Shown: positions 23,996 to 28,961 of the stretch, piece after piece | Layout of the letters: the number at the start of each line of letters is the position of its first letter | Numbering within the stretch: position 1 is the stretch's first letter | NCBI GenBank assembly: GCA_030614005.1 | Contig: JAUWKS010000026.1 | Span: forward strand, 1 to 32,000 | DNA: 32,000 nucleotides | Source of the DNA: Candidatus Heimdallarchaeota archaeon | GTDB lineage: Archaea > Asgardarchaeota > Heimdallarchaeia > JABLTI01 | Reading direction: 5' to 3' | Made by a program: the position numbers and the translations under genes | Notes under the pieces: generated by a model | Databases searched by the model: none | Told to the model about the DNA's origin: nothing | What the model saw: the letters and a program-made list of their open reading frames with translations, nothing else

Positions 23996-24011
23996 AAAAT
24001 AAACTTTATAT
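23996..24011 (+). promoter_or_regulatory. Candidate archaeal BRE/TATA promoter for the longin-GTPase-7TM operon
   Basis: A-rich run followed by TTTATAT (24005-24011), about 40 nt upstream of ATG 24051. AT-rich background limits specificity. Confidence 0.35.
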
Positions 24012-24050
24012 TTCAATATTCGAGATAGTATTTCGGATTATATACAAAAG

Positions 24051-24560
24051 ATGGTGGTCATAATTATTAAACCGTTGAGTTTATGTTTAGTTCAAATGGG
24101 TAAAAAAGGATTAGAACTTGTTAAAACACATCCCAAAGTTTTACCAGATGAAGTTCTAAGTGAGATTACTTACAAAAGCATGCCAATGGGTGCAAAATCT
24201 GGCGATTTTTCATCAGCAGGTATTGGTAGTTTTTATTATTCCAGTTATGTTTTCAAACTTCCTCAAGATGAAGGGAGAGATAACATAGGAACAATAGTTG
24301 CTATTTTTCCTAACATGGATTATGATATAGATGGAATAAGGAAACTCTTCACAGTGATTGTAAAAGAGCTTGAAGGAAAAGCTTTTCTTAGAATGGAGAT
24401 TATGAAAGAAATACTACCAAACCTCTATGATGGTTTTAGTAAAGGTAGAATTAACATTAAAATTAGTTCCTCAACCTCAATCTCTATTGATTTTTCTGAT
24501 GAAAATGAAGAAAAGGTTGTTGATGAGTCAAAGGCTTTTTCAGATGATTTATGGAAATAA
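24051..24560 (+). CDS. Longin/uDENN-like fold protein
   Basis: Pattern read as b-b-a-b-b-b-a-a: SLCLVQM / GLELVKTHP / DEVLSEITYKSMP / DFSSAG / YYSSYVF / IGTIVAIF / IDGIRKLFTVIVKEL / EIMKEILPNLYDGF. G-x-E-L...P...I-x-Y-x-S-x-P resembles uDENN. Confidence 0.6.
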   Translation: MVVIIIKPLSLCLVQMGKKGLELVKTHPKVLPDEVLSEITYKSMPMGAKSGDFSSAGIGSFYYSSYVFKLPQDEGRDNIGTIVAIFPNMDYDIDGIRKLFTVIVKELEGKAFLRMEIMKEILPNLYDGFSKGRINIKISSSTSISIDFSDENEEKVVDESKAFSDDLWK

Positions 24561-24579
24561 CTAGGTGGAAAACTACAAC

Positions 24580-25116
24580 ATGTCATTCTTACTTAATCTT
24601 TTTAGAAGCAAGAACAGAGAAGTAGACGTCACAATCTGCGGTTTAGACAATGCAGGGAAAACTACTATTGTCAAGTACCTGGAAACAGGGGAATTCGTTG
24701 AAACACAACCAACAATGGGCATAAATAGAGGCGAATCTATACACTCAGGAAAAATAGAGATAAATGTTTTCGATTTAGGTGGACAGGAGGATTTCAGGCA
24801 GCTTTGGTCAGAAGTAAACGAAAAATCTGATGGTATTGTCTATGTAGTGGATAAGACCGATGTTATGCGTTTTGAAGAATCATACAACGTCTTTCATAAT
24901 GTGCTTAAAAGCCAACTCCATAAGGATATAAAAATACTTGTTCTTTTACACAAAAGTGACGAACCTGAAGGTTTAGAGAGAAATAGATTCATAAAAGAAT
25001 TTGGTTTGCTTGAAATGCCCTTTCAATGGGCTTGTTATGAAACATCTGCAAAAACAGGCGAAAACATCTATGAAGCTTTCAAATGGTTTGTAGAGTCACT
25101 AAAGGAGGTCAGCTGA
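24580..25116 (+). CDS. Arf/Sar-like small GTPase
   Basis: G1 GLDNAGKTT, G2 PTMG, G3 DLGGQEDFRQLW, G4 HKSD, G5 TSAKTG; N-terminal amphipathic MSFLLNLF. ATG 24580 has an AGGTGG RBS (the track starts at GTG 24565). Confidence 0.93.
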   Translation: MSFLLNLFRSKNREVDVTICGLDNAGKTTIVKYLETGEFVETQPTMGINRGESIHSGKIEINVFDLGGQEDFRQLWSEVNEKSDGIVYVVDKTDVMRFEESYNVFHNVLKSQLHKDIKILVLLHKSDEPEGLERNRFIKEFGLLEMPFQWACYETSAKTGENIYEAFKWFVESLKEVS

Positions 25117-25117
25117 C

Positions 25118-25933
25118 TTGGTTTTAGAAACTGTTTCGTTGTTTTATGTTGTTGTTTCTTGGTTACTAACTGGAGTTATTTTCACCTTAGTTATTGCCCT
25201 TCTTACTAATTTCCTGAAAAAGAAAACAACAGGAACGCTTCTGCTTGCTATCATCTATATTATCTTTTTTATCTCTAGACTCTCCATAACCATGAGTTAT
25301 CAATTACAACTATTGGGATTAAAAGAAAGTAAAGTTACTTTAATTATTCTTGCAATAGCAACTACAACTGCATTAGCTGCTGTTACTTTTCTGTATATCT
25401 TCTCTTGCAGGCACCTCTTGAAGGATGGCGAAGTACTTAAATTAGTAACGTTTTTCCTTTTAGCAGCGTATTGGGCAGCTCTTCTTACAATATCTGTATC
25501 TGATGTTTTGCTTCCTGTAGATGAACGTTGGGCAATTCGTATTACTGATTTTACACTCGATCTTCAGAACATTTCATTTGTATCTGTTTTAATTGTTTTT
25601 CAAGTAGTTATTCAGTCAATAATCTTTTTGAGAATTATTATTCGTGCATTCATCATAGCCAAACGAACAGATGAGATAACAAGAAAAAGAGGATTGCAAA
25701 TGATTGGATGGGGGTTATTAGTGTACTTTATAGGCGGTTTGATAGGTGGTATCTTTTACGCTTTACAGGTAGAAAGTGGTGCCTTAGCCTTCACTCTATG
25801 GGCATTTAGAAGTTTAATATTATTAACAGCATATATTATGATGTATATTGGATGGCTTCTCCCAGATTGGTTCCGTAAAAGAGTTAGAAAGAAAACTTGG
25901 TTTGAACAAAAGTTAATTGTTGATTCAAGTTAA
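25118..25933 (+). CDS. Seven-transmembrane protein (non-rhodopsin)
   Basis: Hydrophobic segments at about aa 7-33, 39-61, 74-96, 107-128, 152-180, 193-216 and 222-247, then PDWFRKRVRKK. GGAGGT RBS lies inside the GTPase 3' end. Confidence 0.8.
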   Translation: MVLETVSLFYVVVSWLLTGVIFTLVIALLTNFLKKKTTGTLLLAIIYIIFFISRLSITMSYQLQLLGLKESKVTLIILAIATTTALAAVTFLYIFSCRHLLKDGEVLKLVTFFLLAAYWAALLTISVSDVLLPVDERWAIRITDFTLDLQNISFVSVLIVFQVVIQSIIFLRIIIRAFIIAKRTDEITRKRGLQMIGWGLLVYFIGGLIGGIFYALQVESGALAFTLWAFRSLILLTAYIMMYIGWLLPDWFRKRVRKKTWFEQKLIVDSS

Positions 25934-25968
25934 TTTGAGGAGTATTTGCTCCTCCAAATAATTTTTTT
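25933..25968 (+). terminator. Hairpin + T tract ending the longin-GTPase-7TM operon
   Basis: GAGGAG-TATTTG-CTCCTC (25937-25954), flanked by TTT/AAA and followed by T7 at 25962-25968. Confidence 0.6.
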
Positions 25969-26182: not shown

Positions 26183-26785
26183 GTGAAACAAAAATTGGTA
26201 AATACCCTCAAAAAAGATCAATTAAAAATTCTGATTAATTTAAGAGAGGTATTAAGACAAGAGATACCGCTCGAGATAGATTTCCCTACTGATAAGAAAG
26301 TGTACTTTGTTGAAAGTGAAGGTTTTATCGTTACATTAACACTAAACGATTTAAATTTAAAATCCCTTCCTGAAGAGCTAGCTGAACTAAAAGAAATCGT
26401 TGTCCTAAATTTAGCAAATAATAATTTTAAGAGAGTACCAGAGGTGATTCAAAAAATAACTAAATTATCAATTTTGGATATGGCTTTTAATCAATTGAAT
26501 GAAATTCCTAAATGGTTAGGAGAACTGGGAAATCTAAGAGAGCTCCGATTAAACAACAATCAGTTATATTCCCTTCCAAGTTCAATTGGAGGTTTAACCA
26601 TTCTGAGGCGCCTTTGTCTGCAATCCAATAGTATTCACTCTCTACCTTTTGAAATTTTGGAATTACAACTTTTAGAAGAAATTCATCTGGATTTTAGGTC
26701 AACTATTAGAAAGTCAATGAAGATGATTCTTAGCAACTTAGAAAGTAATGGTTGTGTAATTAGAAATAATTATAATAGACGGTAA
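26183..26785 (+). CDS. Leucine-rich repeat protein
   Basis: About 5 repeats of 23 aa with LxxLxLxxNxLxxLP consensus (LNLANNNFKRVP, LDMAFNQLNEIP, LRLNNNQLYSLP, LCLQSNSIHSLP). Confidence 0.9.
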   Translation: MKQKLVNTLKKDQLKILINLREVLRQEIPLEIDFPTDKKVYFVESEGFIVTLTLNDLNLKSLPEELAELKEIVVLNLANNNFKRVPEVIQKITKLSILDMAFNQLNEIPKWLGELGNLRELRLNNNQLYSLPSSIGGLTILRRLCLQSNSIHSLPFEILELQLLEEIHLDFRSTIRKSMKMILSNLESNGCVIRNNYNRR

Positions 26786-27003: not shown

Positions 27004-27993
27004 TTATATCTTGTCTTTCTTTTTGGAGTTCCTTCTCCATTCTTTATAATAGCGTGATTGTTTCAATAAATAGCTCTTAGCAATAGGCCTGAACAATTTG
27101 GCGAAGAAACTTACTGTTCTTGTTTTACTCTTCATTTCAGAAATAATATCTTCAAATGAATAATGTTGATATTGTAATAGCTCTTGACTTTCATCAGTAT
27201 CCATGAAAGCACAGTGAAAGTCATTGTTTCCAAAAGCTATTTCTGGTAGTTTTCCTATACCCATTGTTGTTAACATCGCACTAATAAATTCCTTATACGT
27301 TAATCTGCAACTTTCTCCACCGGCAATGTGCCAAACTTTATTCCAAATCTCAACTTTCTCGAGAGCATTTACAACTGCTAGTGCTGCATCTTTTAAATGA
27401 ATGAGCTCCATATTTGTATCAAGAGGAACATCAAACATCATCGGATCCATTTTTAGATTGTCTATATTGGGCATAAAACCAAAACGAAAGATAGACCATT
27501 GTAATGATGATTTCAAAATTATTTCTTCAGCTAAAACCTTTTGTTGGGCATAGATGTCATCTGAATTTGGATTTGGAGGTTCATCAGGAGATAAAATGCA
27601 AGTACCTCTTTTTCTTACATCACCATAGACAGCAACAGATGATGGAAAAATCAATTTTGTATTCTGATCTGATTGTTTAATAGCCTCCACAATATTATCT
27701 GTTCCACATACATTGACCTCTCGAGAGTAATCTAAAGAAATAGAATTAAATTTAGGAGGAACAATGGCTGCTAAATGTAAAACCAAATCCTGATTATGAA
27801 CTGCCTTGACTACATCATCAAAATTTCGTATGTCCCCAAATAATATTTCAATTTGATTTCGATATTTTTTAGCAACTTGTTTCGACTTGCGACTGTTTGT
27901 TGAAAAGCACGTTATTATATGATCTGACTTAACTAGTAAATCAAGTATATGTGAACCTAAACTACCAAAAGCTCCAGTAACCAATATTTTCAT
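27004..27993 (-). CDS. NAD(P)-dependent epimerase/dehydratase (extended SDR), paralogue 1
   Basis: TGAFGSLG Rossmann motif, HLAA, SSVAVYG and YAQQK catalytic motif. Confidence 0.92.
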   Translation of the reverse strand: MKILVTGAFGSLGSHILDLLVKSDHIITCFSTNSRKSKQVAKKYRNQIEILFGDIRNFDDVVKAVHNQDLVLHLAAIVPPKFNSISLDYSREVNVCGTDNIVEAIKQSDQNTKLIFPSSVAVYGDVRKRGTCILSPDEPPNPNSDDIYAQQKVLAEEIILKSSLQWSIFRFGFMPNIDNLKMDPMMFDVPLDTNMELIHLKDAALAVVNALEKVEIWNKVWHIAGGESCRLTYKEFISAMLTTMGIGKLPEIAFGNNDFHCAFMDTDESQELLQYQHYSFEDIISEMKSKTRTVSFFAKLFRPIAKSYLLKQSRYYKEWRRNSKKKDKI

Positions 27994-28961
27994 TCTTTGT
28001 CCTCTTGTTTTTTAAGATTTTTTTTATAATACGGTGATTGATGTAATATAAATCTATGAATAATAGGTCTAAGTAATTTAGTAATTGATATTACGAGTTT
28101 ATTATATTTTCTCATATCAGAAATTATATCATCATAAGAATGGTGCTGATAATTTAGTAACTCATTGCTTTCTTCAGAACTCAAAAAGGAGCTATGATAA
28201 ATACTACCACCAAAAGCTTCATCAGGAATTGTCCCAATGCCCATTGCTTTCATTGTTGAATTAACAAAATTGTGATAATTTAACCTGCAATTTGGTCCTC
28301 CAGCAATATGCAATGTTTTATTCCAGATTTTTTCATTGGTTAAACCATTCGCAAATGCTAAACCAACATCAGAAGGATGTAGTAATTCGATATATGTATC
28401 AATTGGCACATCAAACATTTTTGCATCATACATTAACTCCTTTACAGGTGGGATTACTCCGAGAACAAATATCGAATAAGTGAGATCTGATTGTTTTATT
28501 AAATTCATACATTCAACTTTATGTTTTGAGTAATCATCAACTGGGTTTGGTTTTTCATTGGTTCTGATTGGTTGATGCTTATCCCTTGTATCTCCGAATA
28601 TTGCAACTGAAGATGCGAAAATAAGTTTAGGAGGTGTCGCTAGATTTCTTGCTGATTCAATAATATTTTTTGTTCCTGTTACATTTACCTCTGTTGCTTC
28701 CTTTCTGTTTTTATCATTTATTGGTGGCAAAAAATAAGCCAAGTGTATTATCAAATCTATATCCACAACTGCTTTTGAAACATCCTCTTTTTTACAAATA
28801 TCTCCCCAAACAATATCAAATTTTTTTCTAAACCGCTTGGAGTTTTTTTTAGTTTTCTTTGTTTTAATATCAAAACATCGTACATTAAAACCCCTATTTT
28901 CTAGTGACTCCAATATACTGGAACCAATTAAACCGAAGGCACCAGTTATTAATACATTCAT
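27990..28961 (-). CDS. NAD(P)-dependent epimerase/dehydratase (extended SDR), paralogue 2
   Basis: TGAFGLIG, SSVAIFG, YSKHK; 4-nt overlap with paralogue 1. Confidence 0.92.
   Translation of the reverse strand: MNVLITGAFGLIGSSILESLENRGFNVRCFDIKTKKTKKNSKRFRKKFDIVWGDICKKEDVSKAVVDIDLIIHLAYFLPPINDKNRKEATEVNVTGTKNIIESARNLATPPKLIFASSVAIFGDTRDKHQPIRTNEKPNPVDDYSKHKVECMNLIKQSDLTYSIFVLGVIPPVKELMYDAKMFDVPIDTYIELLHPSDVGLAFANGLTNEKIWNKTLHIAGGPNCRLNYHNFVNSTMKAMGIGTIPDEAFGGSIYHSSFLSSEESNELLNYQHHSYDDIISDMRKYNKLVISITKLLRPIIHRFILHQSPYYKKNLKKQEDKE

Follow-up and report, generated by a model that had tools for sequence, protein, structure and literature searches.

What do a longin-domain protein, an Arf-family GTPase and a seven-transmembrane (7TM) protein do together when an archaeal genome encodes them in three consecutive genes, and which of them acts on which? 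The question is raised by positions 24051–25933 of contig JAUWKS010000026.1 from Candidatus Heimdallarchaeota archaeon, within the 32,000-nt stretch of DNA that we analyzed (the window), whose coordinates are used throughout unless a contig or locus is named. A first-pass annotation of the window had read the trio (longin gene A, GTPase gene B, 7TM gene C) as a single unit, in which a receptor or scaffold, its GTPase switch and a longin regulator form an analogue of receptor-coupled G-protein signaling. Comparison with related cassettes bears out the unit and shifts the weight within it: the constant element is the longin–7TM pair, with the Arf GTPase, which forms its own subfamily, as a frequent third member. 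The reading that we favor, at a probability of roughly 45%, is that the cassette encodes a membrane-docked longin regulator of an Arf switch, in which the 7TM protein would serve as the platform, the longin would be docked on it, and the longin's likeliest role would be that of a GTPase-activating protein (GAP).

One line of evidence for this reading is the make-up of the cassette across genomes. In this genome, three trios lie on contigs 74, 26, and 18, two longin–7TM pairs without a GTPase lie on contigs 10 and 16 (80 and 141 nt between the genes), and one further longin stands alone. When we tallied the cassettes of six genomes, comprising this one and five relatives, with GTPases confirmed by profile hits in the gap, a longin gene immediately preceded each of the 24 7TM genes, always in the same orientation. 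In 19 of the 24 cassettes the two were separated by a GTPase gene belonging to the cassette subfamily, which was missing from the other five; five longins stood alone, and no cassette combined a GTPase and a 7TM gene without a longin. Because the longin–7TM pair is invariant while five cassettes do without the GTPase, the 7TM protein more probably has the longin as its direct partner.

The same gene order recurs among unrelated flanking genes (MFS/ICMT, ABC-2 permeases, PadR/HAAS, DnaJ, and others) in other Heimdall-type assemblies (loci L001, L003–L010, and L030–L036). Spacers of 12–33 nt separate longin and GTPase genes, and the GTPase–7TM junction, the tightest in the cassette, ranges from -8 to +6 nt, as found in 12 cassettes besides the one in the window. 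Every related cassette that we examined repeats this order and close spacing, well beyond what chance would produce. In a survey of 300 sampled genomes of the phylum, strong matches to the 7TM family were found within the organism's own family in 7 of the 10 other genomes sampled, with up to 7 copies per genome, and beyond it in one sister family only (8 of 28 genomes, one copy each). When 18 cassettes are compared pair by pair, the distances obtained for the three genes correlate with one another (r of 0.80, 0.87, and 0.91; Mantel p about 5e-4), the GTPase–7TM pair most closely (r 0.91), so the cassettes duplicated and diverged as blocks. The proposal that the trio is one unit is thus upheld across two related families by conserved order, spacing, and blockwise duplication, and synteny in these Asgard genomes shows the trio kept with differing flanks and multiplied within genomes. 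Copies with one to three in-frame stops or a split longin gene, which look decayed or reflect assembly errors, were also seen in related genomes (G228:C49:46184-48083, G228:C60:42299-42829, G234:C21:5502-6329, G258:C55:152432-153208, and G252:C212:2323-2850).

Gene A (24051–24560, plus strand) encodes a soluble protein of 169 residues with 72 homologues, all of them Asgard; neither it nor 51 relatives matched a Pfam family. Its AlphaFold2 model, built on these relatives (predicted local distance difference test score (pLDDT) of 79.8), has a b-b-a-b-b-b-a-a topology followed by a hairpin; residues 150–169 form a low-confidence tail that is predicted to be disordered, is acidic, and ends in DDLWK. 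The closest structures identified by Foldseek were the longin domains of NPRL2 and NPRL3, with E-values of 1e-6 to 1e-7 and residues 7–148 aligned; NPRL2 was the top match in both the PDB and the Swiss-Prot models (TMq of 0.64–0.66), the PDB matches including NPRL2 of the GATOR1-Rag complex (7t3b chain B), and DENND10/11 and SMCR8, then C9orf72 and FLCN, came next. This topology and these matches to NPRL2/NPRL3 and uDENN-type longins agree with the earlier description of the first protein as longin/uDENN-like. At the level of sequence, a profile search of the longin family against PDB sequences returned nothing relevant and no link to solved longins, and gene A had no match to Pfam NPR2 or Folliculin. 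In the Atlas, 19% of the members of a neighboring cluster carry Pfam NPR2, which we take as a lead only; NPR2 was not found in this genome, a result that is uninformative because control genomes were silent too.

Variation is absent or almost absent at three residues of the longin: G20, where β2 begins, R76, and W168. Arg76 lies in the β4–β5 loop, just before β5, and was kept in all 18 cassette longins examined, being lost only in one solo copy. The invariant tryptophan sits in a C-terminal D-x-[LIMV]-W-[KR] motif that follows a variable acidic linker. In GAP longins and in a class of Heimdall longins, the signature is a GP motif plus an arginine finger (PMC12290439). The corresponding position in gene A reads K-G20-L21, with an invariant Gly, a nearly invariant Leu, and no Pro, and because this Pro is absent we do not file gene A as a member of the GAP-type class. 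The solo longin paralogue on contig 21 of this genome (16995–17555, minus strand) is 31% identical, lacks Arg76, carries an acidic extension after DDLW, and has no neighboring 7TM or GTPase gene.

Gene B (24580–25116, plus strand) encodes 178 residues from an ATG start, upstream of which there is an in-frame GTG at 24565. The protein matches Pfam Arf (PF00025) over profile positions 5–173 of 174, with 139 bits against a cut-off of 22.3 and an E-value of 1.5e-40. Its best solved relatives were Arl1, 8oun (titled only 'GTP-binding protein'), and ARF1, and the listed solved matches were all Arf/Arl proteins except for two 'GTP-binding protein' entries and a miniGq construct. The identification of the second protein as an Arf-like GTPase is therefore secure in both its full-length Pfam match and its solved relatives. 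The alignment to 8oun_A (E 5.5e-28) starts at residue 1 and includes the N-terminal helix. Motifs G1–G5 are intact (GLDNAGKT, PTMG, FDLGGQEDFRQLW, HKSD, and TSA), and among 14 cassette GTPases GLDxAGKT, PTMG, DLGGQ, [HN]KxD, TSA, and MSFLLNLF are invariant or nearly so. DLGGQ of gene B retains the catalytic Gln, and its predicted N-terminal amphipathic helix, MSFLLNLFR, is conserved, with L7 and F8 invariant; residue 2 is Ser rather than the Gly that is N-myristoylated in eukaryotic Arf proteins, so there is no myristoylation signal. Because the G motifs, the catalytic Gln, and the N-terminal helix are conserved, gene B looks like a working switch, judging from its sequence. Pfam also returned SRPRB on gene B (E 6e-9) and a weak G-alpha match below threshold. 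The GTPases of the three trios in this genome are each other's best matches (397, 270, and 205 bits versus 121 for the next) and form their own group among its ~22 small GTPases.

Gene C (25118–25933, plus strand) encodes 271 residues from a TTG start. Residues 1–58, which contain the first transmembrane helix (TM1) and an NFxKKKTTGT motif, align across the family and support this start; the public call (P0074) of 213 residues begins at Met59, without TM1 and most of TM2, and because homologues align over residues 1–58 it is N-terminally truncated. A profile search with gene C against 1.84 billion representatives returned 46 clusters with E-values below 1e-30, trailed by shorter relatives of ~250 residues. 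The AlphaFold2 model from 76 sequences (pLDDT of 93.6, predicted template modeling score of 0.89) has seven long helices, a β-hairpin in extracellular loop 2, which joins helices 4 and 5, and, beyond TM7, a further short helix. Loop Lys and Arg residues number 18 inside versus 4 outside, which orients the protein N-out/C-in, and the earlier assignment of the third protein as a 7TM protein holds in helix number, orientation, and predicted fold alike.

When the model of gene C was aligned exhaustively to solved structures, all of the top 50 matches were G-protein-coupled receptors (GPCRs), with Z-scores of 14–16 on a scale where helical bundles can reach about 13 through arrangement alone; these alignments span 219–248 residues at a root-mean-square deviation of 3.6–5.1 and an identity of 7–15%. 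Foldseek also returned GPCRs, at E-values of about 1e-3. Among named clusters of the AlphaFold Database, the nearest were stand-alone proteins labeled 'Histidine kinase N-terminal 7TM region' (TM-scores of 0.62–0.77), and the Atlas neighbors agree with these HisKA_7TM-like clusters. Gene C matches no Pfam family, and no GPCR family of Pfam was detected in its 76 members at E-values up to 1. The DRY and NPxxY motifs are lacking, the ends of TM3 and TM7 reading C-R98-H and YIGWLLPDW, so the likeness of the predicted model to GPCRs is one of fold only. The proposed analogy to a receptor coupled to its G protein is not supported in the form given: the 7TM protein has neither GPCR sequence membership nor GPCR motifs, and longin and 7TM protein are the invariant pair of the cassettes. 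Four named families were considered for gene C and rejected: Yip1 (PF04893), which reached 17.9 bits against a cut-off of 28.6 in 1 of the 76 members; microbial rhodopsins, since TM7 (residues 222–247) has no Lys for retinal; HisKA_7TM (PF16927), which hit no member despite a real likeness in fold; and 7TMR-DISM_7TM (PF07695), found below cut-off in only 3 of the 76 members (E >= 0.0046). Among 137 family and distant matches, no fusion of the 7TM family with a longin or a GTPase was found.

Conservation in the 7TM family is one-sided. The cytoplasmic half holds 32 of the 33 most conserved columns and has a mean conservation of 0.64 versus 0.45. Conserved there are NFxKKKTxGT, which follows helix 1; YxFxxRHxxxD, where helix 3 ends on the inner side; Arg172; RKxG, which precedes helix 6; and YxGWxxPxW together with the basic helix beyond helix 7. 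In the outer half, loop hairpin included, paralogues differ in both sequence and length, and the sole conserved residue is Arg231 in helix 7. The variable outer half, together with the many paralogues, suggests diversified inputs.

More distant 7TM relatives, from other families of the class, extend the pairing with a longin. These proteins of about 250–280 residues, often two in tandem, have a TM7 that ends in AYLGYxMP, and their genes are preceded by genes for soluble proteins of 147–191 residues that end in SLW or ALW and give weak matches to longin families (Fuz_longin_1, Sybindin). A longin-like partner, not a GTPase, was present in 5 of the 8 distant loci fetched (L022, 3536–4719; L023, 4042–5225; L027, 3324–5288; L028, 2322–4394; L029, 4022–5983) and on contig 123 of this genome (27537–29652, minus strand). 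A terminal Trp motif of this kind is uncommon, being found in 8 of 1487 open reading frames of 100–220 residues in this genome, and five of the eight are cassette longins. These terminal sequences and gene neighbors suggest a wider superfamily in the class, in which a longin with an LW tail would be paired with a 7TM protein. Locus L024 (2835–4402), in a genome farther removed within the phylum, lacks an intervening longin gene: the gene of a Ras-family GTPase (Pfam Ras, E 5e-31) sits 267 nt upstream of the one for a distant 7TM relative. On contig 83 of this genome (15142–16300, minus strand), tandem paralogues of 181 and 191 residues, with about two hydrophobic segments each, carry an E-K-[IL]-W-x-x tail.

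In the mechanism that we favor, the 7TM protein would be a membrane platform and possibly a sensor, a role that its variable outer half and conserved cytoplasmic face would fit. That face would be the docking site of the longin, whose invariant C-terminal D-x-L-W-K/R tail would plausibly make the contact, and the docked longin would control, at the membrane, which nucleotide the Arf GTPase carries. The arginine fingers of NPRL2 (Arg78), FLCN (Arg164), and SMCR8 (Arg147) offer an analogy, on which the near-invariant Arg76 would serve in a GAP role; this role appears the likeliest, given that the closest structural relatives are GAPs of the Arg-finger kind and that gene B has kept the catalytic Gln. 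Longin GAPs of solved structure use an Arg finger on their Arf and Rag clients (PMC8213707, PMC12290439). The GTP-bound GTPase would then bind the membrane through its N-terminal amphipathic helix and pass its state on to effectors. In a more ambitious form, which we regard as speculative and rather doubtful, each 7TM paralogue would sense its own external or membrane cue and a GAP longin held by its tail would set the GTP state of a dedicated Arf, amounting to an archaeal pathway from receptor to small GTPase.

Several observations weigh against the docked, GAP-type longin. The GP motif of GAP longins (PMC12290439) is incomplete at G20-L21, each cassette has one longin where the known longin GAPs are longin heterodimers, and Arg76 is kept in the GTPase-less pairs too and may serve another purpose. 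This last result also led us to reject Arg76 as a discriminator between trios and pairs. The 7TM protein has no identified ligand site, its structural Z-scores are only modestly above those that unrelated helical proteins can attain, and the correlated divergence of the three genes is expected of any co-inherited neighbors and shows co-inheritance, not contact. A predicted complex of longin, GTPase, and 7TM protein with GTP, scored on the 7TM protein, provided no support for the mechanism and no evidence against it.

The alternative that survives best, although we consider it doubtful, makes the 7TM protein a mere anchor without sensing: the longin–Arf pair would drive a process of membrane remodeling or trafficking type, with the longin as effector or adaptor, after the model of the SRX domain of SR-alpha bound to SR-beta, or in the role of guanine nucleotide exchange factor (GEF), as in DENN proteins, Mon1-Ccz1, and TRAPP. 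The predicted Arf-type amphipathic helix of gene B, the missing Pro in the longin, and the SRPRB match on the GTPase would all suit such a pair, a longin acts as a GAP less often than as a GEF or adaptor (PMC12290439), and Asgard Arf proteins are reported to bind membranes in heterologous cells (PMC11914678). A plain anchor accounts less well for the 7TM family itself, in which the outer half and extracellular loop 2 vary while the inner face is fixed and diverged copies accumulate within a genome, a paralogue pattern that fits diversified inputs better, and the best structural neighbors of the longin are GAP longins.

We consider it unlikely that the 7TM protein is instead a GPCR-like receptor acting directly on the Arf GTPase, as its exchange factor or docking site, with the longin reduced to an accessory GAP or adaptor. 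The GPCR-like fold, the short helix after TM7, the conserved cytoplasmic face, and the invariant Arg at the cytoplasmic end of TM3 would be in place for such an exchange, the GTPase–7TM junction and distance correlation are the closest in the cassette, and the faint G-alpha match to gene B points the same way. A fifth of the cassettes do without the GTPase and none without the longin, so direct coupling is a possible but weaker reading than a docked longin; the distant 7TM relatives, paired as they are with longin-like proteins, and the missing sequence link between the 7TM protein and GPCR families also tell against it. That the genes are neighbors without a shared function, gene C being for example a transporter or enzyme unrelated to GTPase signaling, is very improbable: neither the longin nor the 7TM protein has a Pfam family that would gainsay it, but order, orientation, and near-zero spacing are kept across two families and ~30 cassettes in unrelated surroundings, the block duplicated with parallel divergence of its genes, and no transporter or enzyme fold appeared among the structural matches of gene C.

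The locus itself, 24051–25933, is one compact, transcription-unit-like cassette. The open reading frame coordinates confirm three co-oriented genes, with a spacer of 19 nt (24561–24579) between genes A and B and of 1 nt (25117) between genes B and C. As the first-pass annotation had stated, the ribosome-binding site of the 7TM gene lies inside the 3' end of the GTPase gene, where a Shine-Dalgarno-like GGAGGT on the plus strand (25104–25109) precedes the TTG by 8 nt. The TATA-like element that it had noted upstream, TTTATATT (24005–24012, plus strand), is present 39–46 nt before the gene A ATG, and it is weak evidence for a promoter in a very AT-rich spacer; a sigma-70 promoter scan run on the stretch is not meaningful for archaea. 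A hairpin and a run of seven T residues (25933–25968, plus strand) directly follow gene C and are the likely end of the transcription unit: the hairpin (25933–25959) folds at -11.2 kcal/mol (z of -3.6), as stably as none of 200 shuffles, and the T run was read directly at 25962–25968. Archaeal transcription is terminated by oligo-T tracts. A consensus terminator rule missed this hairpin on account of the 2 bases between stem and T-run and of its stem, in which only 7 of 11 pairs are contiguous.

DNA of the trio stretch is also present in marine-sediment and cold-seep metagenomes, and no RNA data set was listed as containing it. In the window, the trio is flanked by an M20 peptidase gene upstream and a leucine-rich-repeat (LRR) protein gene downstream, neither of which adjoins the trio in other genomes. 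The LRR protein (26183–26785), encoded directly downstream of the trio, is a stand-alone protein of 200 residues with Pfam LRR_14 and LRR_8. Farther along (27004–28961, minus strand), two adjacent paralogous genes overlap by 4 nt and encode proteins of 329 and 323 residues with an N-terminal GxxGxxG motif, which would suggest NAD-dependent epimerase/dehydratase-like proteins.

The cassette can be compared with eukaryotic and prokaryotic systems. LYCHOS (GPR155) binds GATOR1, and the LYCHOS/GATOR1/Rag system ties a membrane domain of GPCR fold to an NPRL2-type longin GAP and an Arf/Rag-type GTPase, much as the longin–7TM core might; LYCHOS differs in being a fusion of 17 transmembrane helices with a transporter-like domain, and the cassette link is known from the genes alone and does not imply homology. 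GPR155 has been described as a lysosomal GPCR-like protein (PMC11574030). The eukaryotic longin GAPs include GATOR1 (NPRL2–NPRL3) for RagA/B, FLCN–FNIP for RagC/D, and C9orf72–SMCR8 for ARF1 (PMC8213707, PMC12290439). The cassette longin resembles them in its longin fold, in its best matches, NPRL2 and NPRL3, in its conserved loop Arg, and in having a candidate client of Arf/Rag type with a catalytic Gln, and those complexes likewise act at a membrane. Unlike them, it is a single protein of 169 residues with neither a DENN domain nor the NPRL2 C-terminal domain, has no second longin in its cassette, and reads GL in place of GP. In plants, 7TM-RGS1 with the G-alpha subunit GPA1 (PMC3386157) couples a 7TM protein to a GAP rather than to a GEF, which is the logic that we deem likeliest for the cassette; its RGS domain is fused to the 7TM domain and unrelated to longins, and its client is a heterotrimeric G-alpha.

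Among prokaryotes, the nearest system is the actinobacterial conservon (CvnA-D; PMC13343842, PMC13621833), likewise an operon of a membrane sensor, a roadblock/longin-superfamily regulator (likely a GAP), and a small GTPase. The nearest folds to the cassette 7TM protein, the 7TM input domains of histidine kinases, provide a further link. Conservons differ in that the sensor has a histidine-kinase-like domain, the GTPase is Ras/MglA-like and not Arf, a fourth protein (DUF742, likely a GEF) is present, and the phylum is another. Bacterial 7TM input modules (PF16927, PF07695) are the closest named clusters of predicted structures to gene C, but they are fused to a kinase or cyclase whereas the cassette 7TM protein stands alone. 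Within Asgard archaea, gene B shares the Arf family and the same predicted N-terminal helix with ArfR/AArf, as described in two reports (10.1101/2024.02.28.582541; PMC11914678), and differs in belonging to a subfamily found inside the cassette; those reports mention no operon, gene neighborhood, or transmembrane partner. NPRL2-like longins are abundant in Asgard, and one Asgard operon encodes a LAMTOR1-like roadblock protein, a Rab-like GTPase, and a DENN protein (10.1101/2020.10.19.343400). That operon is also a conserved neighborhood of a small GTPase and roadblock/longin-superfamily regulators, but its GTPase is Rab-like, its regulator is DENN, and it includes no membrane protein. GTPase genes of Asgard strain MK-D1 as a rule do not share operons with those for roadblock or longin proteins (PMC10933270).

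The first-pass annotation knew of no characterised archaeal system with this exact trio, and we found no description of an operon of Arf, longin, and 7TM genes in the papers searched. A 2026 preprint names '7TM proteins', without detail, among previously reported families of Asgard eukaryotic signature proteins. To our knowledge, three points are new: a longin–7TM core that is always paired and has copies without a GTPase, conservation of the 7TM protein on one side only, and a common Trp-containing tail at the longin C-terminus. We rate the cassette as a candidate sensor-linked small-GTPase module with a roadblock/longin-type regulator, built from two unannotated protein families.

Asgard archaea have many eukaryote-like small GTPases and longin/roadblock proteins, and the matches between regulator and GTPase are mostly unassigned. 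Genome layout seldom reveals them (PMC10933270), and which GTPases partner the GAP-like Heimdall longins is a question that has been asked directly (PMC12290439). In the cassette, the lineage nearest to eukaryotes offers a GTPase, a longin, and a membrane protein that are matched genetically and small enough to be expressed and assayed, and its parts list echoes both the eukaryotic lysosomal nutrient-sensing machinery and the bacterial conservons. Should the proposed coupling not be real, the cassette would still stand as an orphan module, conserved and defining two protein families that lack annotation. If it is real, it would bear on the origin of membrane-linked Arf/Rag signaling and of 7TM-coupled GTPase control. 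In the more ambitious form given above, the longin would be the first regulator, and the 7TM protein the first membrane partner, native to an Asgard Arf, and the cassette would correspond in archaea to, and might foreshadow, the lysosomal logic in which a 7TM protein, a GATOR1-type longin, and a Rag or Arf GTPase are joined.

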